Source: Candidatus Marinacidobacterales bacterium (GTDB taxonomy: Bacteria; Acidobacteriota; Vicinamibacteria; Marinacidobacterales; DATDRI01). Taken from it: a DNA stretch of 64,000 bases. Shown one piece after another: positions 7,023 to 57,076 of this stretch. A program made the translations under genes and the position numbers. The number at the start of each line of letters is the position of its first letter. The stretch's first letter is position 1. The stretch spans positions 5,184,001 to 5,248,000 of the forward strand of contig OZ245365.1 in the NCBI GenBank assembly GCA_965226495.1. The letters run 5' to 3'. Under the pieces are notes generated by a model, which made no database searches, was not told where the DNA came from, and saw only the letters and a program-made list of their open reading frames with translations.

Positions 7023-7038
7023 CCGGACGCGACGATAC

Positions 7039-7361: not shown

Positions 7362-7378
7362 ACCGGAGGCAGAGTAGG
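7361..7378 (-). repeat. 18-bp inverted repeat, right copy
   Basis: aaccggaggcagagtagg, reverse complement of 6507..6524; coincides with the kinase breakpoint (YSASG). Confidence 0.9.
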
Positions 7379-9905: not shown

Positions 9906-9971
9906 TCTCGCCCGCCACGACCTGCGTTCGAAGCTAATTTCGGTTCGGTTGAAGAGTCAAAGGCCCGTCGA

Positions 9972-14671: not shown

Positions 14672-14681
14672 TGGAGATGCA

Positions 14682-14711
14682 AAAATAGACCCTGCCACGG
14701 TGAAAAGTCAA
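14682..14711 (-). promoter_or_regulatory. Putative sigma70-type promoter of kinase gene
   Basis: TTGACT-N18-TATTTT, 10 nt before the ATG and no obvious RBS. Confidence 0.55.
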
Positions 14712-14914
14712 AAGGGGGAGGCGGGGTTGCCGGACGCCCCCCCATGCCTTGACAGGCTGCCAGGATCTCAAGTATTCTCCCCATCACCCCTGAGGTCGCC
14801 GGCCCGGGAGCCATTTGGGGCCATTTTTCAATTTTTGCAGGGATCTCCCGCTGGCGGCGTATACTCGGTCATAAAAACTTGGCTCGGCGGTCGCCTTTTT
14901 AGAGGGAAGTGTCT

Positions 14915-27943: not shown

Positions 27944-27951
27944 TCCGATGC

Positions 27952-29268: not shown

Positions 29269-29283
29269 CCGCCTTGCTTTTCT

Positions 29284-30579: not shown

Positions 30580-30592
30580 TGCGATACCGCCT

Positions 30593-31897: not shown

Positions 31898-31927
31898 GTC
31901 AATTCTTCCTTTACCGGCTTGCCCGGT

Positions 31928-33232: not shown

Positions 33233-33252
33233 TTTGAACCAGCCTGCTTTCT

Positions 33253-34566: not shown

Positions 34567-34685
34567 ACTGAATACCTCCCTGTCCGAAAGCACTTGTAAA
34601 CCGGCAGCACTCTGCCGTCAAGGGCCGGGGGGGCGTGGCGAGACGCGTCTCAATGTGGTTCTATAATGATGAAGGAGAACTCAGG

Positions 34686-40607: not shown

Positions 40608-40846
40608 GAGCTAAAGTCTTCGTACGGCTGAAGCCCTCCGTCCATGACCCGCAGGGCGAAACCATCCGGGGTGCCCTCGAGACCATGGGTTACCAAGGTG
40701 TCTCCGACGTACGCCAAGGCAAGTACTTCGAGATGTCTCTGGTTGCCTCTTCGCGGGAAGAGGCAGAGAGCCAGGTTCGCGAGATCGCGAACCGCGTTCT
40801 GTCGAACCCGGTCATCGAGACGTTCGAAGTGGAGATCCTAGACTGA
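40604..40846 (+). CDS. purS: FGAM synthase subunit PurS
   Basis: DPQG, VRQGKYF, LSNPVIE. Confidence 0.96.
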   Translation: MRAKVFVRLKPSVHDPQGETIRGALETMGYQGVSDVRQGKYFEMSLVASSREEAESQVREIANRVLSNPVIETFEVEILD

Positions 40847-41538
40847 TGCCGCGCTTCGCGGTGCTCGTCTTCCCCGGTTCCAATTGTGAAGGGGACGTTC
40901 TCTACGCGCTACGGGATGTGCTCGGTCAAGAAGCGGAGCTGGTTTGGCACAAGGAAACTTCCCTCGATGGTTTCGACGCCGCCTTCCTGCCGGGAGGCTT
41001 CGCTCACGGTGATTATCTCCGGCCCGGTGCCATCGCGCGCTTTTCTCCGATCATGAAGTCGGTTGTCTCGATGGCTGAGGCGGGGAAACCCGTCATCGGA
41101 ATCTGTAACGGCTTTCAGGTCTTGATGGAGGCGGGGCTTCTTCCCGGCGCCATGCTGCGCAACCGGAGCCTTCACTACGTCTGCCGCTATGTGAATCTTC
41201 GCGTGGAAACCACGAAGTCCCCTCTCACCAATACCTGCACCGCAGGGGACGTGCTGCAAGTGCCGATCGGGCACGCCGACGGTAACTTCTTCGCCGACGA
41301 CTCCGAGCTCGAAGAGCTCGAGAAGCGAGGCCGTGTGATGTTCCGGTACTCGACGCCGAGCGGCGAGTTGACCGACGAGGCGAATCCCAACGGCTCGCTT
41401 AACCACATCGCCGGCATCGTGAGCACCGAAGGCAACGTGGTCGGGCTCATGCCACATCTCGATCGTTGCTACGAGCCTGAATTGGGCACCGATCATGGTC
41501 GTCGCCTCTTCCAGAGTCTCATCGCATCGGTCTCATGA
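40846..41538 (+). CDS. purQ: FGAM synthase glutaminase subunit PurQ
   Basis: [32 protein letters not shown]. Confidence 0.96.
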
Positions 41539-43754
41539 ACGTCTCTCAAAAGGATCTCCTCGAAACTCACAACCTGACCGAGGGCGAGTATCGGCAGATC
41601 GTCGAGAAGCTCGGGCGCGAACCCAACCTGACGGAGCTCGGCCTCTTCTCGGTCATGTGGTCCGAGCACTGCAGCTACAAGAGCTCCCGCATGCATCTGA
41701 AGCGACTCCCCACGAAAGGGCCGCGTGTGCTTCAAGGCCCCGGCGAGAACGCGGGCGTCGTGGATCTGGGACACGGACTCGCCGCGGTCTTTAAGGTCGA
41801 GTCCCACAACCACCCTTCTTTTATCGAGCCCTTCCAGGGCGCGGCGACCGGCGTGGGCGGCATTATTCGTGACATCTTTACGATGGGCGCACGTCCCGTC
41901 GCTTTGATGAACTCGCTCCGTTTCGGCCCCCTGTCGGTTCCCAAGAACCGCTCTCTGCTAGAAGGAGTTGTCGCGGGCATCGCGTCCTATGGGAACTGCA
42001 CCGGCATCCCGACCGTCGGTGGCGAAGTGGCTTTCGAAGACTGCTACAACCTCAACCCCTTGGTGAATGCGTTTTGTCTCGGGATCGCCCCCAAAGATCG
42101 GATCTTCCGCGCGCGCGCGGAAGGGCAGGGCAATCCAGTCTTTTATGTCGGCGCCAAGACTGGTAAGGATGGCATCCATGGCGCGACCATGGCGTCTGCC
42201 GAGTTCGATGAGGCGGCCGAAGAGAAGCGACCGACTGTTCAGGTCGGAGATCCCTTCATGGAAAAACTCCTCTTCGAGGCTTGCCTCGAGTTGATGAGCA
42301 CCGATGCGTTGGTCGCGATTCAGGATATGGGCGCCGCCGGACTGACCTGCTCGACCTCCGAGCTTGCGGCCCGCGGAGGCACCGGCATTGCGATCGATAT
42401 CGCCGACGTGCCCCAGCGGGAAAAGGGCATGACCCCCTACGAGATCATGCTGTCCGAGTCCCAGGAGCGGATGCTTCTCGTTGCCAAAGCGGGACGGGAA
42501 TCGGAAGTCGAGGCCATCTTCGACAAGTGGGACTTACATGCCGTCAAGATTGGAAGGGTCACCAGCGACGAAATGCTCCGCGTGCGCAATGGTGAAAAGG
42601 AAGTCGCCGTCGTGCCGTGCCGTGCCCTGGTCGAAGACGGTCCGATCTATGAGCGCCCCATGGAACGGCCTTCCTATCTCGACGAGGCGACGAAATTGGA
42701 TCTGAGCAGCGTTCCTGAACCAGAAGACACAGGCGCTGTGCTAGAACGGCTCCTCGCATCTCATGGTTTAGCCAATAAACATTGGATCTTCCAGCAGTAC
42801 GATCACATGGTGCAGAGCAACACCATCGTGATGCCAGGCTCCGACGCCGGTGTCATTCGTCTCAAGGGAACTCCGCTTGCCCTCGCGATGAGCCTCGACG
42901 GCAATGGTCGCTACGCCTATCTCGATCCCTATCTCGGTGGAGCGCTCGCGGTTGCCGAGTCCTGCCGCAACGTATCCGCCGCCGGAGCGACCCCCATTGG
43001 GGCCACCAACTGCCTCAACTTCGGAAGCCCGGAGAAACCCGCGGTCATGTGGCAGTTCGCTCGCGTCATAGACGGCATCACTGATGCCTGCACCGCACTC
43101 GGTATTCCCATCACCGGCGGCAACGTCAGCTTCTACAACGAGACCGAGGGCGAAAGTATCTACCCCACTCCGGTAGTAGGAACGGTGGGAATACTCGAAG
43201 ACAAGACGTGCCGGGTGAGTCATCATTTCAAAGGCCCCGGAGATTGGATCTACCTCGCGGGCGTAACCACCGACGAGCTAGGGGGCAGCGAGTACCTCAA
43301 GACCATCCACGGCCGGATCCAAGGGCTTCCGCCACGGCTCGATCTCGTTCAGGAAAAGGCGGTGCAAGCCTTTACTCGAGACGCGGCGGCCCGAAAGTGG
43401 CTTCGTTCCGCCCACGATTTGAGTGAAGGCGGGTTGGCCGTCGCGCTCGCGGAGAGTCTCTTTGGTCCCCTCGGTGAAACGGTCGGGGCCACCGTCTCTT
43501 TGGAATGCCCTGGTCGCACGGACGCATTGCTCTTCAGCGAAGGGACCAGCCGGATTCTCGTCAGCGTGGCTGCGAAGCATGCGGAAGAGCTCGAATCACT
43601 GGCGGAAGAACACGGTGTGGCTTTATCTCGCCTGGGAATCACCGGGGGGGAGCGACTCCGCGTGCAGATAAACGGCGTCGATGCCATGTCGCTCGAGATT
43701 TCCGAACTGCGGGAGGGATGGTGGTCATCCATAGAAAGGGACATGCAGCCATGA
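41535..43754 (+). CDS. purL: FGAM synthase subunit PurL
   Basis: [33 protein letters not shown]. Confidence 0.97.
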
Positions 43755-45154
43755 AGGATGGCTTCCACGACGAGTGCGGTGTCTTTGGGATCTTCTCCCA
43801 TCCTGACGCGGCACGACTCACCTATCTTGGTCTCTACGCACTCCAGCACCGCGGCCAGGAGGCAGCGGGGATGGTCACCTCCGCACCGGATGGGCTTCGC
43901 ATCAAGAAATCCAAGGGCTATGTCGCCGATGTTTTCAACGAGCAGGCCTTGCAAGAGCTCGAAGGCTCCGCCGCCATGGGACACGTTCGCTACTCGACCG
44001 CCGGGGAAAACTCCGCCGTCAATGCGCAGCCGCTACTCATCGATTGCAAGTTCGGCGAGATCGCGGTGTGCCACAACGGAAACCTGGTCAATGACCAGGC
44101 CCTCAGAAAGGACCTGGTGGACCGCGGATCCATCTTCCGCACCAACAGTGACACCGAAGTTATCTTGCACCTTTTCGCGAGATCGGATCAGAAGGGAGTA
44201 GAGGACGCTCTCCTAGACGCGCTACGTCCGTTGGAGGGAGCCTTCACCCTGCTCTTCATCACCAAGGAGGCTCTCTACGGCGTTCGCGATCCGCGAGGGT
44301 TCCGCCCGCTCATTATCGGAAAGCTGGGCGATAGCTACGTTCTGTGCTCCGAGACCTGTGCCCTGGACCTCATCGACGCGACCTACGTCAGGGAGGTGGA
44401 GCCTGGGGAGCTGGTGGTCATCGACAAGAACGGACTCCGATCGATCCGTCCATTCGCGACTGAACAACCCCGCCAATGCGTCTTCGAGCACGTCTACTTC
44501 TCCCGGCCGGACAGCGTTGTCTTCGGCCGAAGCGTCCACGTTTCTCGTATCGAGATGGGAAAGCTCTTGGCACAGGAGACAGCGGTCGATGCCGATGTCG
44601 TGGTGCCGGTGCCGGACTCCGGTGTGGTCGCGGCGGTGGGCTACTCGATGGCGTCCGGCCTACCCCTCGAGTTCGGGCTCATCCGCAACCACTATGTGGG
44701 TCGCACGTTCATCGAACCGCATCAATCCATTCGGCATTTCGGCGTCAAAGTGAAGCTCAACCCCGTCCGCTCTGTGCTCGAAGGACGGAGGGTGGTACTG
44801 ATCGACGACTCCATCGTGCGGGGAACCACCAGTCAGAAGATCGTGGGGATGGTGCGAAACGCCGGAGCTCGCGAAGTCCATCTTCGTGTTTCCTCCCCGC
44901 CCATCACCGGTCCCTGTTACTACGGCATCGACACCCCGGAGAAGAAGGACCTTATTGCCGCCACTCATTCCGTCGAGGAGATCCAAGAGTTCCTAGCCGC
45001 CGACAGCCTTGCCTACCTTTCCCACGGCGCGCTCATGGCCTCGGTCCAAAACGGTTCCGATCAATTCTGCTCCGCCTGCTTCAACGGCAACTATCCGGTT
45101 CCGCTTACCGACGAAGCCCTCGGACAAAGAAAGCTTTTCGAGAAGACTCGTTAG
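43751..45154 (+). CDS. purF: Amidophosphoribosyltransferase (intact copy)
   Basis: [41 protein letters not shown]. Confidence 0.97.
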
Positions 45155-45409
45155 TCGAGGCCCCACCGTCGGCGCATTCAAAACCTGCCTAGGGGGGGCT
45201 GGAAACGAAACTCGTTCCCATGCCACATCTGTGGCAGCGTCAACGAAGGAAAATCCGCAGGGATGATTGAGCATCACGATGTCGCGGTCCCGCAGATCTC
45301 GCTCATCGATGGGGAAAGAACTTCCCGATTGCGAGAATCCAGCGCTCGCAAAAACTCAAGTCTCGTCGCCGCATGATATCTTTCTGCGATTCGGTCGGAG
45401 TTCAAGAAC

Positions 45410-46075
45410 GTGCGCAAGTGGATCCCTAACCTGGTGACGGTGACCGGTATGGGGTGCGGTTTTGTTGCGATTCTGGTGGCCCATCGTGGTGCCGTCGATG
45501 CTTCTCTCTTCCTCATCCTGTGCGCAGTGATCTGCGACATCCTCGATGGCAAGCTCGCTCGGTTTCTGGGAGTCTCCTCGAGCTTCGGAGCCCAGCTCGA
45601 TTCGTTCTCCGACGTCATCGCCTTCGGCGTCGCGCCCGCGGTGATTCTATTCGAAGCATCGTTACACCGCCTAGGCTGGCTCGGCGCGGCCGCCGCCTTC
45701 CTCTTTCTCGCTATGTCGGCGGTCCGGCTCATCCGGTTCAATCTGGACGCATCCCTGCAAGAGCGACGGGATTTCTTCCGCGGTTTTTCCACGCCCACGG
45801 CGGCCCTGTATCTCATAAGCTTCATCGTAATGCGAGACCTGCTGCCGGCGTGGATAGGCGTTCTCTATGCCGCCGGTCTGGCGTTTCTCATGGTCTCCTC
45901 GCTCCCCGTCCCATCGTTCGAGGGAACCCGGCTCTCGCCCGCCTATCTCGTCGTCGCTCTGCTGAACACGCTGATACTTCTGCTCAGCCCCACCGTTTGG
46001 ACTTTCGCCTGGTGGAATTTATACGCGCTCTTCGTCCTATCTCTCGGCTACAAAAGGCGGCCGGCGGAAGGATGA
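45410..46075 (+). CDS. CDP-alcohol phosphatidyltransferase (PssA-like)
   Basis: IPNLVT, DILDGKLAR...FGAQLDSFSD, RLIRFN, FRGFSTP. Confidence 0.92.
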   Translation: MRKWIPNLVTVTGMGCGFVAILVAHRGAVDASLFLILCAVICDILDGKLARFLGVSSSFGAQLDSFSDVIAFGVAPAVILFEASLHRLGWLGAAAAFLFLAMSAVRLIRFNLDASLQERRDFFRGFSTPTAALYLISFIVMRDLLPAWIGVLYAAGLAFLMVSSLPVPSFEGTRLSPAYLVVALLNTLILLLSPTVWTFAWWNLYALFVLSLGYKRRPAEG

Positions 46076-49000
46076 TCCTTCGGTGGCCCGTCAAAGACTC
46101 TAGACGCGTCATCCAGATGCTGGCTCAACTCAAACAAGCGGAGCCATGTGGGTATAACCCTCTCGAGAAATCGTTTCCTCTGGAACCGGTACAAGAGCGT
46201 GTACATGGGAAGCCGGCTCACCAGTAAATGCTGCAGCGAGAGCGTGAAGCCGCGCCGCCAGTCGCGCGCGTCGATCGAAGCTTCGACCTCTTCATCGAGC
46301 AACTGGCGATGAAGTGCTACGTAGTGCCCGAGCTCATCTTTCGTAGCAGCAGGTGAGAGCACGAAACAGAGGAGCTCGGCCAGATCGTGCTGCGGCGCTC
46401 CGAGCGTCGCGAGCTCCCAGTCATAGGCGCAGAGCTCGAGCCCGGCCCCGTTTCCGTGGCGAAAGGCGACGTTTCGGGAATTGAAGTCGTTGTGAATGAG
46501 GGTGCGTGGCATGCTCGTCAACTCCTCGGACCAGATGTCGACGTCGTCCACGGCTCGCTCTTGCGCCGCCACGAGCCCGTCTCCGGCCCAGTCTCGAAAC
46601 CAGGGACGCGCGTGCTCGGAAAGCGCTTGCCAGAGATCGCCCATCTCGTTCAAAGATGCGGAAGTTACGACGGGTCCCAGCCATTCTTGCCTTTCGAGCT
46701 CGGACTCGCGTCCATACCAGACCGAGTGGATCTTCGCGAGTCCCCGAATGGCGGCTTCCGTAGCAGCGCGTGACCAGCCATCTGCTTGGTCAGCGCTATC
46801 CAATAGCCAAAGCCCTTCCAGATCCTCAAGAGCGAGCGCCCAGAGCCCCTCGTCATCGTCGCGAACCGTGCCGTACAAGGCAGGCATGAAGTTTCGAAGC
46901 CGCGCGTCATCCTGCTCGTAAAGAGCCAGCTCTCGTCGATGACATAGCGTGAAGCTGAGCTTCCTCCCGAAACGATCGAAGAGCTCACCGAGACGGGTCG
47001 AGCACAGATCCGCCACGACCTGCGCCACGGCCAATACGTCGTCATCGGAGGGCTTCACCTTCAAGAACAAACGCAGTGTTCGCTCCTGCGCGTCGGACGT
47101 ACGGAATCGCGTCGTGGCGCGATAGAGGCCGGTCTCGCGCGTGCTGTACCAGGATGTTAGCTCGGTGAGAATGCTCTGCTCGACGCCCACTGGCTCGAGC
47201 TCGAGCTCGAGAATATCGAGGGAATCGTCGCCGAAATGCCGGCTGAGAACACTCTGGAGCCACTCGTCCACCGGGGCATCACGACCGTCACGGTCGCGGC
47301 GTCGAGCCGGCGCCACCAGAACACCACGATCGATGAACGACGTGTAAGCGCGATCGAGATAGCCGGGCCCGGAATCCGGGCAAGAGACGCGAAGACGTGC
47401 CAGCCGTCGATCGGTATTCTCCGTCAGGACCCGCGTCTTTCGGCAGTCCTCGAAGAGCTCGAGTGAAAAAACCTCTTGCCCGTCTTTCGCCGTCACTCGC
47501 TTGGACAAGAACGGCTGCAGATGATGGAGAGCGTGGTTCCGCGCGCTGGCACTTTCCTGAAGGCGGGACAACCACTCGCGATAGCCCGCGAGCTTCATCG
47601 GGTAGCCGAAAAGATTCATCCACAAGACCAGCTCGCGCCAGTGCCGCGGCTTCGGACTTCGAATGTGGTGGACGGCGAGAGCTCTCTCCTCCGGTTCTTG
47701 TGACAAGGCCACGACTGCCCGGCTCGCGTAGTCGACGGGACAGCCGTCGAGTTGCAGGTCGAGATCCGGGGCCATTTCCATCTCGATGCATCCTCTGACA
47801 AAACGCGAGAGGAAGTCGCTCTCGTTGCCGCGACCTCTGACATCGGAGCCCGTAAGCAGGGCGAGCCGATAAACGGATGCGCCGAGCCCGCGTTCGGAAG
47901 CTTCGCGAACCAGTGCTTCGGCCACGCACTTGCTCTCTGCGTAACCGAGCTGAAGATCTGGAAGGAAGGGCAGCACGTCGTCGACTTCGGCAAGCTCGCT
48001 CGCCCGCGTTGTGTAACAGACGCCGAGGGTCGAGACGAAGTGGAATCGCTTCGCCTTTCCGAGACAGGCCAATCTCAGGAGCTCCCGCGTGCCCAGAACG
48101 TTGACCTCACGCAAGTCGCGATACGGATAGACGAAATTGACCGCGGCGGCGTTGTGATAGATGGCGTCCGTTGTTTGCGCCAGCTCTTCGAACGCGTCGA
48201 GTCCTTCGCTCAAGTCTCCCTTCATGGGCACGATACGTCGCTCGAACGATGGACTCCACAGATCATGGGACTCGAGATTTCTTCGGAGGCGCTCCGAGCC
48301 GCCTTCCCCACGCACCAGGCAAACGATTTGCGCTCGAGTTTGCTCGAGAAGCTCTTTCAACAGATACGCTCCAAAGAATCCAGTGGCGCCGGTGAGAAGA
48401 ATCGAGCGCGGCTCGTCTCCCGAAATGACCCGCGGGGCGGGGCGAATGTCCTTCGGCAGACAGGTGTCCGCGAGCATCAGGGCGAGCTCAGAGCCCCTGG
48501 GCCTCGTCGAGCGACGCGCTCGCTGGCTGCCGGCGTTGCGGAGCTGGCCCTGCAATCGTTGCAGTGCTCCGGGCTCGAGAAGCTCCGCAATAGAAACATT
48601 CCGACCGACCCACCGCCCGATCGCCGTTTGAACCTCGACCACGCCGAGTGAATCCACGTAACGGGAGAGGGACGATCGAAGGTCGACCGATGCCAAGGGA
48701 GCACCGGAGAGCTGCGCGACCAGACTGCGGATCTTCGGTTCGATAGCATCGCTCTGGATCGCGTCGTCACCGTTCACGGAACGCGCGAGCATCTTCATTT
48801 TCCCGGCTGCGAAGGCGTCCCGGCAGGCCCAGCGCCTGAGCTTTCCGCTCGACGTCTTCAGTAGAGCCCGAGGCGGCACGAGGGCGATCGTGCCGAGCCG
48901 GAGCCCGTGACGCTCGAGGACCGCCGCTCGCAGAGATTGCATGATTTCAGAAGCGTATCGAGCTCGCTCCTCTTCGCTGGCGCTCATCATCGCCCGGTCC

Positions 49001-50499
49001 ACTTTGACCTCGGCGAGCACAGAGGCTTCCTCGCCATCGTCTCGAGACGTTCCAAATACGGCAACCCCGCCGCCTCGAACTCCGGGATGAGCCTCTTCGG
49101 CCGTCCACTCGATGTCACTCGGGGAGTAATTGACGCCGCGAACGATCAGAACGTCTTTCATTCGCCCCACGACGAAGAGCTCTCCGTCCAGGACGAAGCC
49201 AAGATCACCGGTGCGGAGAAAGGGACCTTCTTGCGTATCTTCCAGGACGGCACGAAACGTTCTCGTGCTCTCCTCGGGATCGTTCCAATAGCCTGCACAC
49301 ACACTTGGGCTTGCGAGCCATATCTCACCCACCTCGCCCGAGGCACAACGAGTGCGGTGCTCAGGGTCCGCGATCACAAGCTGGGTATCGCGATGAGGCT
49401 GCCCGCTTCCCACTCGAAGCACACCTTTCGCTGCATCGTTCGAAGGCGTGGCCTGGCCTTTTTCGAGGAGCTCCCGGTCCAGCTGGATCAGAACAGGCGA
49501 GTCCTCGTGCCTGCGGCTGGTGACGAGAACGGTGGACTCCGCGAGCCCGTAGACCGGATAAAAAGCCCGCCAATCGAAGCCACAGGGCCGGAACGCGTCC
49601 AGGAACGAGCAAAGCGTTTCCGCGCGCACCGGTTCTGCACCGTTATACGCTACGCGCCACGAGCGCAAATCCAGCGAGGCGCGCTCCGCTTTCGACGTCT
49701 TGCGGACGCAAAGCTCATAGGCGAAGTTCGGAGCGCCGCTGTTCGTCGCGCGATAACGTGAGATGGCGCTCAGCCACCGCAGAGGTTTCGTCAGAAACGC
49801 CCCCGGCGAAAATACATAAGCGGGAAAGCCGCTATAAAGAGGTTGCAAGATTCCGTCGATGAGCCCCATGTCGTGGTGCATCGGAAGCCACGAAACGGAA
49901 ACGCTACCGCGCTCGTTGCCTTCGGCCTCGGCGCCGTGAGCCAGGTTGTGCATCAGGTTTCCATGACTCACCATGACGCCGCGCGGGGCGGCGGTGGAGC
50001 CGGACGTGTATTGGAGAAACGCCAGTTGCCGCGCGTCGAGCGGTGTCTCCGTCCAAGCGCCCGCGAGCTCCGTCGGCACTGCATTGGACTCGACGAAGCG
50101 GACTGAAGAGCCCATTTCCGCACGAACGCTCTCGGGAAGCTCGTCGTCGCTGAGGATGACCTCGACCGCGGCGTCGCGGGCGATACCGCGTAAGCGCGGC
50201 AAGCTCTCTTGGCGGAGCACGGGGCTCGGTCGGTAGGCGGGCACCGCCACCGCACCCGCGTAGAGGCATCCGAGGAAGGCGCCGATGAACTCCAAGCCGC
50301 TATCGAGCGTCAAGAGAACGCGCTGTCCTTCGGCGCCAGCCTCCTGGAGCTTGGCCGCAATCGCGCGGGATCTTCTGTCGAGCTGGGCATAGGTGAAGCT
50401 CGCGCCCTCGACCTCGCCGTCGTCGAGAAAGGTGTAGGCAGGCTTGTCGGGAGAAGACAGCGACCGGCGCCGCAATACATCGACGATGGTGACTGTCAC
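46048..50499 (-). CDS. Multidomain FAAL - ACP - thioester reductase - APH/choline-kinase-like phosphotransferase
   Basis: AFLQYTSGST, SWLPMHHDMGLI, YGLAE, RTGDLG; VDSL carrier Ser; LLTGATGFFG and YAESK; LIHNDFNSRN and YDWE. Confidence 0.9.
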   Translation of the reverse strand: MTVTIVDVLRRRSLSSPDKPAYTFLDDGEVEGASFTYAQLDRRSRAIAAKLQEAGAEGQRVLLTLDSGLEFIGAFLGCLYAGAVAVPAYRPSPVLRQESLPRLRGIARDAAVEVILSDDELPESVRAEMGSSVRFVESNAVPTELAGAWTETPLDARQLAFLQYTSGSTAAPRGVMVSHGNLMHNLAHGAEAEGNERGSVSVSWLPMHHDMGLIDGILQPLYSGFPAYVFSPGAFLTKPLRWLSAISRYRATNSGAPNFAYELCVRKTSKAERASLDLRSWRVAYNGAEPVRAETLCSFLDAFRPCGFDWRAFYPVYGLAESTVLVTSRRHEDSPVLIQLDRELLEKGQATPSNDAAKGVLRVGSGQPHRDTQLVIADPEHRTRCASGEVGEIWLASPSVCAGYWNDPEESTRTFRAVLEDTQEGPFLRTGDLGFVLDGELFVVGRMKDVLIVRGVNYSPSDIEWTAEEAHPGVRGGGVAVFGTSRDDGEEASVLAEVKVDRAMMSASEEERARYASEIMQSLRAAVLERHGLRLGTIALVPPRALLKTSSGKLRRWACRDAFAAGKMKMLARSVNGDDAIQSDAIEPKIRSLVAQLSGAPLASVDLRSSLSRYVDSLGVVEVQTAIGRWVGRNVSIAELLEPGALQRLQGQLRNAGSQRARRSTRPRGSELALMLADTCLPKDIRPAPRVISGDEPRSILLTGATGFFGAYLLKELLEQTRAQIVCLVRGEGGSERLRRNLESHDLWSPSFERRIVPMKGDLSEGLDAFEELAQTTDAIYHNAAAVNFVYPYRDLREVNVLGTRELLRLACLGKAKRFHFVSTLGVCYTTRASELAEVDDVLPFLPDLQLGYAESKCVAEALVREASERGLGASVYRLALLTGSDVRGRGNESDFLSRFVRGCIEMEMAPDLDLQLDGCPVDYASRAVVALSQEPEERALAVHHIRSPKPRHWRELVLWMNLFGYPMKLAGYREWLSRLQESASARNHALHHLQPFLSKRVTAKDGQEVFSLELFEDCRKTRVLTENTDRRLARLRVSCPDSGPGYLDRAYTSFIDRGVLVAPARRRDRDGRDAPVDEWLQSVLSRHFGDDSLDILELELEPVGVEQSILTELTSWYSTRETGLYRATTRFRTSDAQERTLRLFLKVKPSDDDVLAVAQVVADLCSTRLGELFDRFGRKLSFTLCHRRELALYEQDDARLRNFMPALYGTVRDDDEGLWALALEDLEGLWLLDSADQADGWSRAATEAAIRGLAKIHSVWYGRESELERQEWLGPVVTSASLNEMGDLWQALSEHARPWFRDWAGDGLVAAQERAVDDVDIWSEELTSMPRTLIHNDFNSRNVAFRHGNGAGLELCAYDWELATLGAPQHDLAELLCFVLSPAATKDELGHYVALHRQLLDEEVEASIDARDWRRGFTLSLQHLLVSRLPMYTLLYRFQRKRFLERVIPTWLRLFELSQHLDDASRVFDGPPKDHPSAGRLL

Positions 50500-51260
50500 A
50501 GCGCCGCCTCCTTCCCCGCCTGCTCAATCCGGGCTGCGTCCAGATAGCCGACGAAGCGCTCTCGAATCGCCGCTTTGTTCTCCTCGAGCTCCTCCAGCCG
50601 CCAGCTCTCTGTGTGGATAGGTGCATGGACGTGCACGTGCACCGTCCCCGGAAACACGCCGAATCCCTTTCCCGGATTGATCTCGGCCGGGATTTCGATG
50701 AACAGAGGAACGATAGGGGCTTTGAGATTGGTCGCTAAGTGAAACGTTCCCTTGTTGAACGGCCCGATCTGGCCCGTCGTAACGCGCGTTCCTTCTGGGC
50801 TCAGGAAGACGGACTCCCCGGTTCGGCGAAGAGTGCGCTCGGCCGCCTGGAAGCAGCGAATGCGCTTGTCAGGCATCGATTGAGGCGGCGTAAAGAAAGT
50901 GCCGATGAGCCACGCCATGAGCCCAAGAGGTGGGAGAAGCAAGAATCTGCGCTTCATAAAAAAGCGGGTGTTGGGAAGCCCGAGCGCAATGAGTATGAAC
51001 AGATCGATGGTCGAAGTGTGGTTCGCAACGTAAACCTTCTGCGATGTCGGAAAGGGATGTTCCTGGTGCACGACGAGACGGATGCCCCCGAGCCACAACA
51101 TCGTGTGGCCAACCACTTTCGCAATCACTTCCTGGCAAAAGCGGCGAGTGCGAAATAGCGTTGCGATCGAGATCGCGAGCATGAGAGCTCCCGCAAGTGT
51201 CATCAGGAGCATCGATGCGGCGAAGAGGAGCACCGAGCGCAGAAAATTAGGTTTCGCCAT
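50496..51260 (-). CDS. PlsC-like lysophospholipid acyltransferase
   Basis: NHTSTID (HxxxxD), PEGTR, FNKGTF. Confidence 0.92.
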   Translation of the reverse strand: MAKPNFLRSVLLFAASMLLMTLAGALMLAISIATLFRTRRFCQEVIAKVVGHTMLWLGGIRLVVHQEHPFPTSQKVYVANHTSTIDLFILIALGLPNTRFFMKRRFLLLPPLGLMAWLIGTFFTPPQSMPDKRIRCFQAAERTLRRTGESVFLSPEGTRVTTGQIGPFNKGTFHLATNLKAPIVPLFIEIPAEINPGKGFGVFPGTVHVHVHAPIHTESWRLEELEENKAAIRERFVGYLDAARIEQAGKEAAL

Positions 51261-52218
51261 TCGACTTCCTCTTTCTGCAGACAACGGTCTGCATCGCGAG
51301 ATTCAATTGCTTTTCGAACGCTAGAACGGGCAACGTCAAGATCTGCCCCAGGACATAGACATAGCCCCACTTCTGCAAGTCCAGTCCTCTGCCTTTCAAG
51401 AGCTTGAAGGCCGCTCCCGCGAACAAATAGAAGTAGGCGGGGAAAGCTCCGTAGGGCATGTAGTCCACGATGTCGAACCCCGCCCGCTCCATGAGCTTGA
51501 AGAGGTGTTCCTTGTCGTAGAGCGCCGTGTGTTGGGGCGCCTGGAGACCGGGCCACCGCTCGCGGAACAAGCCAAAAGTGATGCTATCGAGACGAGGCAC
51601 TTCGACAATGAAGTGGCCGTCATCCTTCATCACAGAGCGCGCCGTCTCGAGCGTGCGCAGCGGGTCGTAGTCGTGCTCGAGGAAATGCCACATCGTGATG
51701 AGATCGAAACTCCCCCCGCGAAACTCCTGTTCGTAGAAGAGGCCGCAGTGAAAATCGATGTGCTCGAATCCTTCGGCGCCCTCGAAATCCTTGAAGTCGA
51801 CGCCCGTCACACGAGCATCGTGTACGACTCGCATCTTGTTCAGGAAGGTTCCAGCACCACAGCCCACGTCGAGAATCTCGTTCGGATTACCCGGCTTCAG
51901 GTATGGCCGGACGATCTGCTCTTTCTTCCGATCGAGCTGGTCCATGACGTAGTTGTAGACGGGTGTCAGAGAGCCCCAGTCTCTCTTCTTCCGGTGCGCG
52001 ATGTACTCATCGTCGTAATAATCCTTGATGTGTTCGACGTCGATCCGCGGATGCTGATACGCGAGGCCGCATTCGGCGCAGCGGACGAAATGGAACCACC
52101 CAGGCTTTCCCGTGAGATCCTCCTGGGCGCTCACGAACGGTTCGCGCGCAGCGCTCGAGCAGTAATAGCAGCTCACCGGCTCGAAGATGGATGCGTCCGG
52201 AACGATCGTTGCGTTCAC
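51247..52218 (-). CDS. Class I SAM methyltransferase with N-terminal CxxC...CxxC
   Basis: CYYC...CAEC, LDVGCGAG, FDLITMWHFLEH; GTG start after GGAGGT. Confidence 0.9.
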   Translation of the reverse strand: MNATIVPDASIFEPVSCYYCSSAAREPFVSAQEDLTGKPGWFHFVRCAECGLAYQHPRIDVEHIKDYYDDEYIAHRKKRDWGSLTPVYNYVMDQLDRKKEQIVRPYLKPGNPNEILDVGCGAGTFLNKMRVVHDARVTGVDFKDFEGAEGFEHIDFHCGLFYEQEFRGGSFDLITMWHFLEHDYDPLRTLETARSVMKDDGHFIVEVPRLDSITFGLFRERWPGLQAPQHTALYDKEHLFKLMERAGFDIVDYMPYGAFPAYFYLFAGAAFKLLKGRGLDLQKWGYVYVLGQILTLPVLAFEKQLNLAMQTVVCRKRKSNGET

Positions 52219-53012
52219 GCACGACCTCCGTAAGCACTCAACAGAACCAAGAAAGACAGCATGAAAGCCCCGCGACCCAGGCGAGCACAATCGTTCCTCC
52301 GCCGAAATTGCAGAAAGCTCGTGGCCGCGAGCGCGAGGGCGAGGCCACTGAGAGAGAACAGGACGACGCTAGAGACTTCGTTCGTGAGGGACACCCAGGC
52401 CGCGAGAACCCAGATAGTCAGATCGGCAGCTACGACGACCTTGATCCCCTTGAACTGATGTGTCCTTTTGTCGTGCAGCGGTTCGTAGAGGGCGAACGTG
52501 AAGAACACGAGGGCCAGCGTCCCGAGCAGGAGCTGGTCGACCGGCGCCGACGCGAGTCGCGCACCGACGTACGCAAAGAACGGGTACTTGAGAAGCACGA
52601 TGTGGTACGCCACGGCGCGCGGCGCACGGTCGGCCAGCCAGCGGTACCAGAGGAAAAAGAACAGAAGCGCGACGAGATAAAGGAGCTGCAAATCCCGCTG
52701 TCCCAGTAGAAGGAGCAGAACGACTCCCACCCCAGCAACCCACAACCTGTGAAACGAAGTGAGGGAGCTGACGCGGGAAAGCACGCGCTCGGGAAACGCG
52801 ACACGATCGGTCTTCACGTCACTCAGATCGTCCCAGAGGCGGAACTGAAAGAGGAGAACCACGACCGTAACCAAAGCTCTTGGACGAGCCGCGGCATCGC
52901 CGGCCAAAAGGCTCGGAATCGCGAGAAACAGAGTGACCGGTACGAACAGCGTCAACGGGAACCGCTCGCGGCGGTATCTCAGAATCGACGAATCACTCGA
53001 CCAGATGGACAC
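52215..53012 (-). CDS. UbiA prenyltransferase-family membrane protein
   Basis: FRLWDDLSDVKTDRVAFPERVL (DxxDxxxD...PxR); multiple TM segments. Confidence 0.78.
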   Translation of the reverse strand: MSIWSSDSSILRYRRERFPLTLFVPVTLFLAIPSLLAGDAAARPRALVTVVVLLFQFRLWDDLSDVKTDRVAFPERVLSRVSSLTSFHRLWVAGVGVVLLLLLGQRDLQLLYLVALLFFFLWYRWLADRAPRAVAYHIVLLKYPFFAYVGARLASAPVDQLLLGTLALVFFTFALYEPLHDKRTHQFKGIKVVVAADLTIWVLAAWVSLTNEVSSVVLFSLSGLALALAATSFLQFRRRNDCARLGRGAFMLSFLVLLSAYGGRA

Positions 53013-55539
53013 GACCCAAATCTCCGTCGACCTCGAGCGCGCGACCGTCCGTGATCAGACGCATGGCGTCCTTGACGCCTACGACCGAGGGAATACCGAA
53101 CTCGCGCGCCAGAATCGCTCCGTGGGAGAGGAGCCCACCTCGCTCCAGGACGAGCCCTTTGATGAGAGGAAACGCAGGACCCCAGCCTGGATCCGTTTGC
53201 CGCGTCACGAGGACGTCACCGCCTCGCAAACGCTGGCACTCCGTCACGTCGTGGAGGATCGCAGCCGGTCCTCGCACCTTGCCGGTGCCTGCACCGATAC
53301 CCACGAGAGTCTGCGGGTCTGCGGCGCCCGCGGCCCGAGCCTCCTCATCGAGCCCGTTCTCATCAAGGTGCTCGCCGACGGGCAACACGAAATGCTCCGG
53401 CGGCTCGATGCCGCCGAGCCGCTGGTGCTCGCTCTTGCGCTTAGCGATCTCGGGAAACCTCTCGCCTCCGGAGAGGAAACGATCAAGCTCCTGCCACGTC
53501 AGAAAGAACGCGTCGTCCGGGTGCTTTAACGTGCCCTGTGCGACGAGCTTCTCTCCGATGGCGAGCACAATCCGGCGGCAGCGACTGTACAGAAGTGCCT
53601 GCTTGAGACGGGCCCGTTCGCGTAGCGAGATCGCCCGGTGTGTCCACGAGAGGAGTCGAGGGAAAACCAGGGACTTCTTCAGGCTGAGCTGCGCGCGCAC
53701 GCGCTCGGTCGCCGCGACGCGACGCGACGCCTGGTCAGCTAGCGTCTCGCGCGGTGCGCGCGCCTCCGAGGCGACGTAAGGCTTCAAGAGGTCGAGCAAG
53801 CGCTCGGGGTTTTCCTGAAAGCTGGGCACCGTCATCATCAACTCTCCCGAGCAGCGGAATCCCCAGCGTTCCAGATATGCGTCGACGGTACGGTGAAATG
53901 GAGCGAAACGCTCTTCGTTTTCCAAAGCGCGAAGGATCTCGCCGCTGTCTTTGTTCCGAAACAGCGCCGCGAGCTCCGAATCCTGGCGAACGAGCCGCGA
54001 TAGCTCCCAGAGGTCCAACGCCGGTTGAGCACTGACGACATCGGGAAGCCCCTTCAACAGATCCCCAAGTTGGCGGTCGTCTCCGCCAAGAAGTGATTTG
54101 AGCGCGCCGCTCGTTACCATCGCGGCCGCATCGGCGAGAGATGCCCCGAGCCACCGGAAGCGACGAATTTCGAGAAACGCTCGTAGAGCGCGATGCTGGT
54201 CTCTAAGGGAGCGATCTCCCAGACGATCCGGGTGCCATTCGCTCGCGAAGCGATCAACCGTCATTTCGAACTCGTGGACGCGTCGGTCGAAGCCGACATA
54301 GAGCCAGCTCGTCTTGAGGCAGATCCACGCAAGCTCCATGGCCTGCCGCAATCTCGAATCTTTCTCGACCGAAGTCTCGCCTTCGGCACCATCCCGCCGC
54401 GTACCCACGAACTCGTCGAAAGAGCGGGTCAACCACTCACCGAAAGGAACCGCGCGGAGCACTCGGTGAACGTTTGTGACGTTGTAGTAGATCCGAGCTG
54501 CGTGGACGCCGATGATGTTTCGGAAAGCGCCGTCCGCGGCGTCGAGGCGTCGCTGGGTAATCCCGAATGCACGGCCGAGGTTTCGAAAATAGTGCTCGTA
54601 GCCGACGGCAGCGACGGAGTATAGAAACGGCGTCACTGGTCCGGGGAAATTCTCGTTGATGTTCGCGTTCGACCAGACGACACGCTCTGCTACCCGAGCG
54701 TTTCGAGTTGGAACCGTGATCGGCCTCGACTGCACGAGGTAGACGCGTCCTTCGGGATCGATCGTCCATTCGATGTCCTGAGGTCCACCGAATCGTAGCT
54801 CGAGCTCGAGTCCGAACCTTCCGAGCTCTTCGAGCTGTTTCTCACTAAGGAGTGCGTCACGGTCTTTGCCCGGAGGTTTGGTCATCCGAAGGCAGCTCAG
54901 GTCCTGCCGCCTCAACGAGAAACGACCCGGGTCGGCGCGGCCCGACACCAGAGCCTCACCGGCACCGTAAACGTATTCACCGAGGAGCTCTTCCGATGCC
55001 GAGGGCGCTCTCGTGAACAAGACGCCGGAGATCGACGCGTCAATTTGTTGCTGGACAATGACGCCCACGCCTCGCAGTCGCGCGCCGCGCGCGAGCTGGT
55101 AGGAAAGCGAGCGCTCCGACCAGGCGGACGCCCAACATGCTTTGAGCGCTTGCTCGAGTCCGTCCGCGCTCACGACGTCGGGAAACGAGTCAAGGAGGCC
55201 GGCGTAGGACGACTCGCTCCCGTCCTCGCCGACCCCGGAGCTTCGTACGATGACTCTCTGCCCCTCGAGATGCTCTTCCCAGAACCGGACGAGCTCCTCG
55301 CGCAGCGCGAGCGGCAGCCTCGAGCCGAGAAGGACCTCTCGAATCTCGGCCCCGTTCGCTACCGAATCGAGCGATCTCTCCAGCATGAATGCCTCGAGCA
55401 CTTCGTGAGGTACGACGAATCCCGGAGGCACTGGCAAGCCTTCGCCCAACATTCGAGAAAGGCGGGCCGCCTTTCCGCCCACGCGCTCGACATCGCATGC
55501 GTCCGAGAGCGGAAGAAGTCCCGCGACGCTCAAGCCCAC
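52993..55539 (-). CDS. PEP-synthase/rifampin-phosphotransferase-like dikinase (ATP-grasp, central domain, phospho-His swivel)
   Basis: VGGKA, VRSSGVGED, PQDIEW, QSRPIT, TDPGW, GGLLSHGAILAREFGIP. Confidence 0.92.
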   Translation of the reverse strand: MGLSVAGLLPLSDACDVERVGGKAARLSRMLGEGLPVPPGFVVPHEVLEAFMLERSLDSVANGAEIREVLLGSRLPLALREELVRFWEEHLEGQRVIVRSSGVGEDGSESSYAGLLDSFPDVVSADGLEQALKACWASAWSERSLSYQLARGARLRGVGVIVQQQIDASISGVLFTRAPSASEELLGEYVYGAGEALVSGRADPGRFSLRRQDLSCLRMTKPPGKDRDALLSEKQLEELGRFGLELELRFGGPQDIEWTIDPEGRVYLVQSRPITVPTRNARVAERVVWSNANINENFPGPVTPFLYSVAAVGYEHYFRNLGRAFGITQRRLDAADGAFRNIIGVHAARIYYNVTNVHRVLRAVPFGEWLTRSFDEFVGTRRDGAEGETSVEKDSRLRQAMELAWICLKTSWLYVGFDRRVHEFEMTVDRFASEWHPDRLGDRSLRDQHRALRAFLEIRRFRWLGASLADAAAMVTSGALKSLLGGDDRQLGDLLKGLPDVVSAQPALDLWELSRLVRQDSELAALFRNKDSGEILRALENEERFAPFHRTVDAYLERWGFRCSGELMMTVPSFQENPERLLDLLKPYVASEARAPRETLADQASRRVAATERVRAQLSLKKSLVFPRLLSWTHRAISLRERARLKQALLYSRCRRIVLAIGEKLVAQGTLKHPDDAFFLTWQELDRFLSGGERFPEIAKRKSEHQRLGGIEPPEHFVLPVGEHLDENGLDEEARAAGAADPQTLVGIGAGTGKVRGPAAILHDVTECQRLRGGDVLVTRQTDPGWGPAFPLIKGLVLERGGLLSHGAILAREFGIPSVVGVKDAMRLITDGRALEVDGDLGRVHLVE

Positions 55540-56114
55540 CGCCGCTTCACACCCATCGAGAACAACGCCGCGCTAAACAAGAGATGAATCCCGGGACCGA
55601 TGAGAAGGACGAACAACCACATCTTCCAGGGCGTGGGAACCACGAAGCTCATCACCACCAGCATTCCCACGATCGAGTCCAACCGGTCGCCAAAAAAGCA
55701 AACGAGTCGGGCCAGACGGCTGCGCGGTGCACAGCCCGGTGGCACGCTGAGCTGTCGTTTCAGGAAGGAGTTGGGCATTTCCCCGAGCATGAAGCCGAAG
55801 CTCGCGAGCCCTCCAAGAGCAAAGAACTGGAAACCGGTGAGCGGCCAAATGCCGTCGGTCCACGTGGGATGCAAGGTAGCGAGCAAGTGATGGAGGCCTG
55901 CGAACGCGAGGGCCGCCGCGGGCACCATGACGATGAAGCCTCGGGGCGTTTTATTGTCGCCGAAGATACGCTTTCCGCGAAAGCTTCGTCCGCCGTCGAG
56001 CGGCGTCGTGAAACGCCGCGACAATGCCGTTCTCAGCCAGATTGTTTGAACAATGCCGGCAAGCGTGAAAGCGACGACGACAAAGAGCGCGCACGAGAGC
56101 GGGTCGAGATGCAT
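55530..56114 (-). CDS. CDP-archaeol synthase (CarS)-like cytidylyltransferase
   Basis: PLDGGRSFRGKRIFGDNKTPRGF and GEMPNSFLKRQLSVPPG...DRLDS; start overlaps the desaturase stop (TGATG). Confidence 0.85.
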   Translation of the reverse strand: MHLDPLSCALFVVVAFTLAGIVQTIWLRTALSRRFTTPLDGGRSFRGKRIFGDNKTPRGFIVMVPAAALAFAGLHHLLATLHPTWTDGIWPLTGFQFFALGGLASFGFMLGEMPNSFLKRQLSVPPGCAPRSRLARLVCFFGDRLDSIVGMLVVMSFVVPTPWKMWLFVLLIGPGIHLLFSAALFSMGVKRRWA

Positions 56115-57076
56115 CACACCTCGGAGCTGGACTGGGTTCGATTCTGGAACATGAAGACTTCTGCGGGTAGCCGTCGGGCGGCGAGAATCCAGCGCCACCA
56201 GACGGCAATATTCTTGGGCTGGTAGTCGACACGGGAAAGGAAGTAGCCTGGAATCTGTGGATGGATGTGGTGAAGCTCGTGCGCGTCTACGTTGGCCAGA
56301 ATCCATTGCGAGAACCAACGCGGGAAGCGAAGTGAGCGCGTGAACACCTCCTGCTCGCGAGCCGAGAAAGGTCGGACCGATTCGTTGCCGCTGACCTTCA
56401 TCGGAACGTGGGTGTGCTGACTCAGAATGAGGGAGTCGATAAAAACCATACTCAGCAGAACTCCGACGCCGAGACTGCGCAGCAAGGTCGAGAACCCAAA
56501 GGCGTAGATGACGCCCACATAAAGGGCGGCAAGTCCCAGAATGTTCACCGCGATGCGCTTTCGAAGGGGAGAAGCGGGAAAGAGTTTTTGCAGCCGCGGC
56601 CAGTTCCAGAAGTTATTGATGCGGTAGACGAGAACGAAGATGGGAATCCAGAATCGCCAGCAAACGTTCATCAACACACGTTCTGCACGAGAGAGCTCTC
56701 GCGGCACGAGCGTCGCCGTCGTGGGATCCAGATCCTGCCAACCAGTCCAGTGGTGATGCTGGTTGTGGATGGCCGTCCAGGCGTGAAAAGGGATGAAGCT
56801 GAAAACGCCCGCGATTTGGCCCGCGAGGTGGTTCCACCGAGGGGTTCGAAAGAGAATTCCATGCCCGCATTCGTGGAGGAGCACAAACCACTGCACGAGC
56901 GCAAGAGCCAGGAGAGCTTGCCCGACGACCCAAGCAATGGGATGGGGGCGCCCTGCGAGGGCGATTCCGGCAACCGTTAACAGGAGGCAACCGAAGAAGT
57001 AGAGTCCTCCGAACGTGTCGCGAGGCCGGAGGTGGATGACCTCGGCAGGTAGCGGGGCGTTCAATTCCAATGACAT
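56114..57076 (-). CDS. Membrane fatty-acid desaturase-family protein
   Basis: His boxes HECGH, HNQHH, HELHH; AAGGAG RBS. Confidence 0.92.
   Translation of the reverse strand: MSLELNAPLPAEVIHLRPRDTFGGLYFFGCLLLTVAGIALAGRPHPIAWVVGQALLALALVQWFVLLHECGHGILFRTPRWNHLAGQIAGVFSFIPFHAWTAIHNQHHHWTGWQDLDPTTATLVPRELSRAERVLMNVCWRFWIPIFVLVYRINNFWNWPRLQKLFPASPLRKRIAVNILGLAALYVGVIYAFGFSTLLRSLGVGVLLSMVFIDSLILSQHTHVPMKVSGNESVRPFSAREQEVFTRSLRFPRWFSQWILANVDAHELHHIHPQIPGYFLSRVDYQPKNIAVWWRWILAARRLPAEVFMFQNRTQSSSEV

Follow-up and report, generated by a model that had tools for sequence, protein, structure and literature searches.

We identified, in a 64,000 nucleotide stretch of contig OZ245365.1 (assembly GCA_965226495.1, Candidatus Marinacidobacterales bacterium, positions 5,184,001 to 5,248,000; hereafter the window), a gene for a protein in which a FAAL-type adenylation domain, an acyl carrier protein (ACP) domain, a thioester reductase domain (R) and a small-molecule kinase domain (K) follow one another in a single chain. 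The constant unit of this kinase family is the reductase plus the kinase, and the four-domain form is a recurrent, lineage-specific minority fusion. We think it somewhat probable that the protein is a self-contained alkyl-phosphate synthase feeding a membrane-lipid pathway, with a fatty acid as its predicted substrate, the derived alcohol as the putative substrate of the kinase, and presumed further steps downstream. Chief among the arguments is the covalent tie of the kinase to two unrelated types of thioester reductase, which suggests that it takes the reductase's own product. The second is that R lies close to an alcohol-forming reductase, and for this reason an alcohol is proposed as that product.

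Domain organization of the protein

The reading frame (46048..50499, minus strand) is unbroken over 1483 codons; its start, a GTG, shares a 4 nt overlap with the stop of the gene before it. The four-domain layout given for it in the original prediction is exact as to the frame, and Pfam and NCBIfam place the four parts, the carrier by a weak match and the others with domain scores far above chance. The same fusion recurs in independent assemblies, and the observation is confirmed. Pfam matches include AMP-binding (residues 11-405, E 6.4e-62), a DIP2-like AMP C-terminal domain that forms a lobe of the adenylation domain (residues 449-571), NAD_binding_4 (residues 702-929, E 2.5e-54), APH (residues 1206-1377; 37.8 bits, above the cut-off of 23.2) and EcKL (residues 1196-1403; 29.9 bits, above the cut-off of 22). 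The DSL, YxxxK, HNDFNSRN and DWE motifs quoted earlier were all located in the sequence, and about 440 residues lie C-terminal of the reductase domain, where more than 400 had been claimed. The fused proteins are named "thioester reductase domain-containing protein" or "thioester reductase-like protein" in public records.

FAAL families rank near the top of the NCBIfam matches to residues 3-570, and PRK05850 is the second best after a large nonribosomal peptide synthetase/polyketide synthase (NRPS/PKS) model. All 15 matches at E<=2.3e-72 in a PDB sequence search with this domain are FAAL-type or related adenylating entries (they include FadD32, FadD23, FadD28, E. coli FAAL 3pbk, 3kxw and a PKS loading domain). 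FAALs carry a specific insertion that blocks CoA ligation. Of the 139 relatives with a reductase domain, 137 keep the Ser of the carrier's DSL motif and 136 the Asp before it, and PF00550 is precomputed for most relatives.

Fusion of reductase and kinase in relatives

A word-indexed search with the kinase region, covering proteins of 815-2596 amino acids (aa), gave 461 hits, 120 of them listed. BLAST comparison with the domains of the window's protein and with an exemplar of the HMG-CoA reductase (HMGR) family divides these 120 into 97 proteins of the form (ACP)-R-K (about 900 aa), 12 of the form FAAL-(ACP)-R-K, the window's included, and 11 in which the kinase follows an HMGR domain (HMGR-K). 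An exhaustive HMMER search of cluster representatives found 1241 clusters at E<=1e-3, 534 at E<=1e-10 and 242 at E<=1e-30, and the best 150 representatives are 77 (ACP)-R-K, 4 FAAL-containing, 24 HMGR-K and 45 kinase-only proteins. The kinase is covalently joined to an R or HMGR domain in 232 of the 270 listed relatives. It sits behind two unrelated thioester reductases, the predicted common feature of which is a new primary alcohol as product.

A FastTree tree of 249 kinase domains (a quick run, with midpoint root, local supports and BLAST-derived labels) places the HMGR-K kinases in one clade (support 0.999, n=44). Kinase-only sequences occur in the tree as scattered singletons beside R-K or HMGR-K sequences, and most of them are therefore probably fragments. 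Three separate clades hold the 15 proteins with a fused FAAL, one of ten that includes the window's protein (support 0.999), one of two and one of three. Thus, the FAAL fusion arose at least three times, from an adjacent FAAL gene, and its repetition argues for a functional link.

A genome scan with the kinase profile, using one genome per species, matched 582 stretches, of which 561 encode a relative; locus counts refer to the best 80 of these 561 loci (48 of R-K type and 32 of HMGR-K type). In 32 of the 80 loci FAAL has a gene of its own immediately upstream, and it is fused in 3 (L001 and L002, both Acidobacteriota, and L063, Archangiaceae). That FAAL and ACP-R-K are separate in most relatives is what would be expected if the four-domain frame were an artefact of assembly or gene calling. 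We give this explanation practically no credence, as the frame is unbroken in the window and fused homologues occur in six other clusters (P0003-P0008; 1443-1517 aa, on different contigs, with 54-86% identity in the kinase region) as well as in L001, L002 and L063; the chimera considered in the original prediction is thereby rejected. The claim of an unusual four-domain architecture stands in that the fusion is real. It does not stand as to which unit is unusual, as this is the widespread R-K pair, and the four-domain form makes up only the 12 of 120 listed hits and 3 of 80 loci given above.

The reductase domain

R scores 288.4 bits against the thioester reductase model TIGR01746 (cut-off 213.35; residues 700-1042) and has both the NADPH motif (GATGF, for GxxGxxG) and the catalytic pair (YAESK, for YxxxK). 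Its closest PDB relative is the myxalamid terminal reductase MxaA-R (4u7w, E 1.6e-72), and other PDB reductases matched are a PKS reductase (8.1e-46), M. tuberculosis Nrp-R (5.8e-30) and carboxylic acid reductase (CAR, 1.9e-28). In the available part of one study the M. tuberculosis Nrp reductase domain is described as two-step, four-electron and alcohol-forming, and AusA-R as an aldehyde-forming example (PMC8024701). The work on MxaA is cited there under a title on primary-alcohol production, and that citation is our only source for MxaA (PMC8024701). By these matches, R is far nearer to alcohol-forming reductases than to aldehyde-forming CAR.

A reductase that halts at the aldehyde, as in CAR, would leave the kinase with an unrelated or regulatory role. 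The adenylation, carrier and reductase (A-T-R) layout is that of CAR, and CAR reductase domains are detectable relatives at the E value given above. Against this, the protein scores 153 bits on the CAR equivalog NF041592, for which the cut-off is 1300, so that identification as a CAR was rejected, and MxaA-R, which is linked to primary alcohols, is 44 orders of magnitude closer than CAR. The catalytic kinase residues are also all invariant, and the same kinase follows a reductase of the HMGR family. We consider an aldehyde endpoint very improbable.

The kinase domain

The kinase fold claimed for the C-terminal domain is borne out by structure prediction. An AlphaFold2 model of residues 1080-1483, built on an alignment of 17 sequences (A1), has a mean pLDDT of 94.6 and a pTM of 0.92. 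Foldseek gives 270 PDB matches to it at E<=1e-3, and all the top ones are small-molecule kinases (a putative APH, 3dxp; PsiK; YtaA; Rv3168; choline and ethanolamine kinases; homoserine kinase; and 25-hydroxysteroid kinase). Matches to 3dxp, PsiK, YtaA, Rv3168 and the choline kinases have a probability of 1.00 and TM scores of 0.45-0.61.

Residues E1190, H1336, D1338, R1342, N1343, D1360 and E1362 are invariant in an alignment of 97 relatives, in which K1147 is conserved in at least 90%; in A1 the same catalytic residues are invariant, including the beta-3 Lys (K1147) and the alpha-C Glu (E1190). A pseudokinase was rejected on this invariance across the 97 relatives. We identify K as a predicted intact small-molecule kinase, the nearest relatives of which, by sequence and modelled fold, include lipid-alcohol kinases. 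In a PDB sequence search, K was most similar to the kinase region of ACAD11 (E 0.007, 68 residues, spanning HxDxxxxN...DWE). According to the accessible portion of a preprint, the kinase domain of ACAD10 has the APH fold and a DWE motif and phosphorylates 1-O-alkylglycerol, and its nearest structures are 3dxp and 3ats (PMC13596139). Membership of K in the ACAD10 group was rejected, given this marginal similarity and the presence of HNDFN rather than HYDxK.

The seven-gene operon

The gene is the last of seven on the same strand, with overlaps of 4 to 76 nt, in the order desaturase, CarS-like protein, dikinase, UbiA-like protein, methyltransferase, PlsC and then FAAL-ACP-R-kinase (Table 1). The start of the CarS-like protein is probably M69 of an open reading frame (ORF) that reaches 56318, judging from homologues of about 195 aa.

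Table 1. Features of the four-domain protein and of the genes upstream of it (positions are those of the window).
Feature	Position	Strand	Size or evidence
Whole ORF FAAL-ACP-R-kinase (P0001)	46048..50499	-	1483 aa
FAAL domain, residues ~3-570	48790..50493	-	PRK05850 5.3e-129 (below cut-off); PDB matches
Carrier (ACP/PP-binding) domain, residues 589-642	48574..48735	-	Weak Pfam PP-binding match; conserved DSL Ser
Phosphopantetheine serine S617 in DSL motif (residues 616-618)	48649-48651	-	Motif match
Thioester reductase (R) domain, residues 700-1042	47374..48402	-	TIGR01746; GATGF 704-708, YAESK 853-857
APH/choline-kinase-fold kinase (K) domain, residues ~1080-1465	46105..47262	-	Pfam, alignments, fold
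K catalytic loop HNDFNSRN (residues 1336-1343)	46471-46494	-	Motif match
K DWE motif (residues 1360-1362)	within 46414-46425	-	Motif match
PlsC-type acyltransferase	50496..51284	-	Pfam Acyltransferase 1.2e-21; TIGR00530 4.2e-21, below cut-off; HX4D motif NHTSTID
SAM-dependent methyltransferase	51247..52290	-	Methyltransf_23 1.4e-23; longest ORF, true start maybe later
UbiA-superfamily, DGGGPS-like membrane protein	52215..53012	-	265 aa; motifs FRLWDDLSDVKTDR and YEPLHD, fold, profile alignment
PEP-synthase/rifampicin-phosphotransferase-like dikinase	52993..55539	-	848 aa; PPDK_N 5.3e-49, PEP-utilizers 4.5e-22
CarS-like cytidylyltransferase	55530..56114	-	Pfam CarS-like 1.4e-12; PRK04032 9.6e-18, below cut-off
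Membrane fatty-acid desaturase/hydroxylase	56114..57076	-	FA_desaturase 1.5e-24; three His boxes

We counted partner genes in the 35 R-K loci that have their full upstream flank (complete loci). Dikinase, methyltransferase and PlsC are present in all of them (35/35 each), the CarS-like protein in 34/35, the UbiA-like protein in 31/35, FAAL in 30/35 and the desaturase, detection of which is limited by the 10 kb flank, in 29/35. CarS, dikinase, methyltransferase, PlsC, R and K are colinear in 32 of the 35. Carriers belong to at least seven phyla and include Acidobacteriota (many Vicinamibacterales), Planctomycetota (Pirellula and relatives), Gemmatimonadota, Nitrospinaceae, Beta- and Gammaproteobacteria, Myxococcota and Akkermansiaceae. 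Among these loci, L001 is closest to the window; it comes from a "Candidatus Marinacidobacterales" metagenome-assembled genome (MAG) and has the whole operon in common with the window (50-76% identity). All-vs-all clustering of locus ORFs for extra conserved partners was swamped by shadow ORFs in these GC-rich loci, and Pfam applied to the candidates gave nothing more than a glutamine cyclotransferase, found in 5 loci.

The dikinase has a PPDK_N ATP-grasp domain and a C-terminal swivel-His domain with its His within GGLLSHGAILAREFG; its NCBIfam matches (PRK06241, 2.2e-142; RedH, 1e-98; Rph, 2.7e-85) are all below cut-offs. The 265-aa UbiA-like protein matched nothing in a Pfam search that included the UbiA model, and in NCBIfam it matched the prenyltransferase PRK13592 (7.6e-4). 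Its motif DDLSDVKTD (FRLWDDLSDVKTDR) fits the UbiA signature [ND]DxxDxxxD, YEPLHD is a second acidic motif, and D62, D69 and D181 are invariant in an alignment of 22 homologues (A3). The ten best Foldseek matches of its AlphaFold2 model (pLDDT 93.2) are all of the UbiA superfamily, with TM scores of 0.55-0.64 and weak E values (6e-3 to 0.2); they include A. pernix UbiA, the DGGGP synthases 6m31 and 7bpu, a membrane phosphoribosyltransferase (8j8j, in fourth place) and A. fulgidus UbiA. Alignment by hhalign with the PRK05951 prenyltransferase of HdN1 (see below) gave 84% probability (E 7.4e-6), through the Asp-rich motif. By its predicted membrane fold, Asp-rich motif and second acidic motif, this partner appears to fit the UbiA superfamily.

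An arylesterase/SMP-30-like beta-propeller gene lies 94 bp upstream of the desaturase (57171-58229, minus strand); no counterpart turned up in the 80 loci, the 10 kb flanks of which mostly stop short of that position. Just downstream of the kinase gene is an ORF of 183 aa (45274-45825, minus strand) with no family match. It was rejected as a member of the system, with homologues in only 3 of the 80 loci (L001, L002 and L027). Genes of a purine biosynthesis block (39300-45154, plus strand; purB-, purQ-, purL- and purF-like) converge on the operon.

A sister operon with an HMGR-kinase

The 32 HMGR-K loci are L068 and 31 others (e.g., L033, L045 and L052). Cultured carriers include Atopomonas hussainii JCM 19513, A. 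sediminilitoris A3.4 and strain HdN1. In the gamma proteobacterium HdN1 (L068:2646-18925), the kinase follows an HMGR-family domain (Pfam, 1.5e-116), and a dikinase gene lies directly downstream of that for the HMGR-kinase. The operon also encodes a UbiA-type prenyltransferase (PRK05951, 5.8e-122), a fusion of acyl-CoA ligase and CDP-alcohol phosphatidyltransferase, a small CarS-like protein (PRK04032, 1.5e-8) and MMPL and LolA-like proteins. Searches of the 32 loci, many of them on short contigs, by tblastn with the HdN1 proteins found the UbiA-type protein in 26, the dikinase in 25, the ligase-transferase fusion in 24 and the CarS-like protein in 18. From their gene content, the R-K and HMGR-K operons have five functions in common: acyl activation, thioester reduction, kinase, dikinase, and a UbiA-like plus a CarS-like protein.

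The HMGR family reduces thioesters by four electrons to the alcohol. The HMGR-like domain of these proteins aligns end to end with archaeal HMGR (E 5.9e-75) and keeps motifs that we take to be catalytic hallmarks of HMGR. Thus, the domain may truly make mevalonate rather than a fatty alcohol. If it is a genuine HMGR, the kinase of the HMGR-K proteins would be a mevalonate kinase outside the GHMP family.

Proposed pathway

In the pathway we propose, the FAAL domain would adenylate a long-chain fatty acid and load the protein's own phosphopantetheinyl carrier at Ser617. R would then reduce the thioester with two NADPH, via the aldehyde, to a primary fatty alcohol, and K would phosphorylate the new hydroxyl with ATP, with Asp1338 as catalytic base and Asn1343 and Asp1360 holding Mg. 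The resulting alkyl phosphate would serve as an intermediate for a membrane-lipid pathway of the six co-oriented upstream genes; it is probably an intermediate for the dikinase, UbiA-like, CarS-like and PlsC proteins rather than an end product. The order of activation, reduction and phosphorylation put forward in the original prediction gains indirect support from the nearness of R to MxaA-R and from the fusion of the same kinase family to an HMGR-family reductase.

Several points weigh against this pathway. The FAAL models PRK05850 (431 bits), FadD21 and FadD32 each score under their own NCBIfam cut-offs (775 to 1100), as do all NCBIfam FAAL models, and the adenylation domain is therefore termed FAAL-like. 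The Pfam PP-binding match (PF00550) of the carrier, at 14.3 bits, is under the cut-off of 20.8. Five of the 35 complete loci are without an adjacent FAAL gene. No FAAL gene lies between PlsC and ACP-R-K in L015, L016, L027, L035 and L037 (and also in L028), where loading of the carrier must fall to an enzyme whose gene lies outside the operon. Four-electron reduction by R is what we infer, and sequence alone cannot reveal it. The nearest characterized kinases, those of ACAD10 and ACAD11, use 1-O-alkylglycerol or hydroxyacyl-CoA and not plain fatty alcohols. Finally, a mevalonate product of the HMGR-like domain would support the general rule that the kinase acts on the primary alcohol just formed, yet it would lend no support to a lipid as that substrate.

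The kinase might instead act on a later lipid alcohol, such as a 1-O-alkylglycerol made by the UbiA-like protein or a hydroxyl introduced by the desaturase, with the dikinase activating the fatty alcohol. The best PDB sequence match of K, to the ACAD11 kinase region, would fit this arrangement, as would the description of ACAD10 as a 1-O-alkylglycerol kinase with the same DWE motif in the portion of the paper available (PMC13596139). The dikinase, as a second phosphotransferase encoded in every complete locus, could serve the fatty alcohol. We consider such a role rather unlikely, as the covalent tie of the kinase to R or HMGR, two unrelated folds, would be hard to explain, the similarity to ACAD11 is marginal, and the lysine of the ACAD10 HYDxK loop is Asn here.

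If the alkyl phosphate is indeed the product, the operon may tentatively be read as a fatty-acid-based counterpart of the archaeal ether-lipid route that proceeds via an alkyl diphosphate, a possibility that we hold with considerable doubt. The dikinase would raise the alkyl phosphate to the alkyl diphosphate, and the DGGGPS-like UbiA transferase would take the alkyl group from this and attach it to a glycerol phosphate backbone through an ether bond. PlsC would add an ester chain, the CarS-like protein would make a CDP-activated lipid, and the desaturase and methyltransferase would tailor the product. UbiA enzymes normally ionise allylic diphosphates, and a saturated alkyl diphosphate would need an SN2-like course, or else an allylic donor (a 2-alkenyl chain). 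Among the window ORFs of at least 150 aa scanned by Pfam, no gene for GGGPS, glycerol-1-phosphate dehydrogenase or isoprenoid synthesis was identified.

Alternatively, the alkyl phosphate may not be an alkyl donor. The CarS-like protein could convert it to a CDP-alkanol for a glycerol-free phospholipid, or it could be the acceptor for the UbiA-like protein (as decaprenyl phosphate is for the membrane phosphoribosyltransferase). The near-universal CarS-like gene, the CDP-alcohol phosphatidyltransferase fused to the ligase in the HMGR-K operon and the place of 8j8j among the structural matches of the UbiA-like protein are consistent with this. It would leave the universally conserved dikinase and PlsC with no obvious substrate, and PlsC with no free hydroxyl unless the desaturase-like enzyme hydroxylates the alkyl phosphate, and we regard it as improbable.

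Literature and significance

All of the domains are of known families; a thioester reductase wired to a small-molecule kinase was not found described in the literature covered. In the open-access literature (subscription journals and the figures and supplements of preprints were outside its scope), no paper on this architecture or operon was found, in agreement with the original prediction, which recognized no characterized enzyme of this kind. For biological fatty-alcohol kinases or phosphates, the same literature gave only synthetic lysophosphatidate analogues and the like, and for fatty alkyl diphosphates as metabolites it gave only synthetic prenyltransferase substrates and unrelated chemistry. 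Neither the combination of CarS, thioester reductase, FAAL, prenyltransferase and PEP synthase nor that of ether lipid, UbiA, fatty alcohol, diphosphate and Planctomycetes led to an open-access paper. The accessible portions of the elb and FCB-group literature make no mention of a kinase fused to a reductase. The Lipocone paper was set aside, as the mentions of HMGR and APH in the part available concern other neighbourhoods (PMC12419801).

The R-K unit is not a curiosity of a single genome, as it marks an operon conserved across at least seven phyla, which are common in soils, fresh water and the sea. Fatty-acid chemistry next to look-alikes of two archaeal ether-lipid enzymes makes the operon a testable candidate for unusual membrane (possibly ether) lipids in aerobic bacteria beyond the myxobacteria. 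If the ether-lipid reading is true, the operon would be a new route to the ether bond in aerobic bacteria, among them Acidobacteriota (Vicinamibacterales and others), Planctomycetota of the Pirellula type and Gemmatimonadota, and might have a bearing on the unexplained pathway behind the non-isoprenoid ether lipids of soils and sponges. In that case, the HMGR-kinase sister operon would also contain a route, outside the GHMP family, that leads from a thioester to the diphosphate of an alcohol.

Other features of the window

Six tandem paralogous amidohydrolase genes (Amidohydro_1, about 430 aa each) lie head to tail at 26663-34593 (minus strand). Three Ser/Thr protein kinases with TPR or PD40/beta-propeller tails are encoded at 1195-3681 (plus strand), 6981-8960 (minus strand) and 11789-14698 (minus strand). 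A B12-binding radical SAM protein, of a class discussed in the literature for the synthesis of membrane-spanning lipids, is encoded at 14909-16426 (plus strand). An ORF6N-domain gene beside a DUF222/HNH endonuclease gene (9351-11267) resembles a small mobile or phage-derived insert.

Comparison with known systems

The HMGR-K operon of Gammaproteobacteria and Myxococcota (HdN1, Atopomonas and a Marinobacter MAG) has in common with the operon of the window the same kinase family, the dikinase, UbiA-type and CarS-like proteins and an acyl-activating enzyme. It differs in its HMG-CoA-reductase-family reductase, its ligase-transferase fusion and its MMPL/LolA-like export genes, and is likewise uncharacterized. 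CAR, like the protein described here, is a single chain of adenylation domain, phosphopantetheinyl carrier and terminal SDR-type thioester reductase, and its substrates are free carboxylic acids. However, CAR ends at the reductase and releases the aldehyde, whereas here the adenylation domain is of the FAAL type, R is nearer to MxaA-R and a kinase is added after R. The dikinase has the ATP-grasp PPDK_N domain and the swivel-His domain, with its catalytic His motif, of rifampicin phosphotransferase and PEP-synthase-like dikinases (also RedH/PigC), yet it falls under every NCBIfam cut-off, and its proposed acceptor is an alkyl phosphate.

The kinases of ACAD10 and ACAD11 are, in the part of the paper available, like K in the APH fold, in DWE in place of DFG (for Mg binding) and in fusion to a lipid-metabolising domain, and their substrates, 1-O-alkylglycerol and 4-hydroxyacyl-CoA, are lipid alcohols (PMC13596139). 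Unlike K, of which the loop has Asn at the position of the HYDxK lysine, they are fused to an ACAD or HAD domain rather than to a thioester reductase, and the similarity is marginal, as noted above. The beta-3 Lys of K is Arg in the ACAD10 homologue of C. thermarum.

In ElbD, which belongs to the elb ether-lipid cluster of myxobacteria, the last domain is an acyltransferase, not a kinase. Identity with ElbD was rejected, as the C-terminus here is a kinase and the acyltransferase is encoded by a separate upstream gene (50496-51284). The likeness lies in adenylation, carrier and reductase domains near acyltransferase chemistry, and ElbD homologues are reported in Acidobacteriota, according to the accessible text of a preprint (10.64898/2026.06.23.733905). 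The partner genes here (dikinase, UbiA-like and CarS-like) are unlike those of elb. A tBLASTn survey with an ElbD query would probably catch this protein as a "standalone elbD hit", and counts of ElbD homologues as ether-lipid markers probably sweep in this different enzyme.

The archaeal ether-lipid route offers the remaining comparison. The UbiA-like model matches the DGGGPS structures 6m31 and 7bpu at a TM score of about 0.64 and has the DDxxDxxxD motif, although the protein lacks a Pfam UbiA match and the Foldseek E values are weak. The operon also carries a CarS-like protein, which falls below the NCBIfam cut-off. Unlike in archaea, the lipid tail here would derive from a fatty acid.

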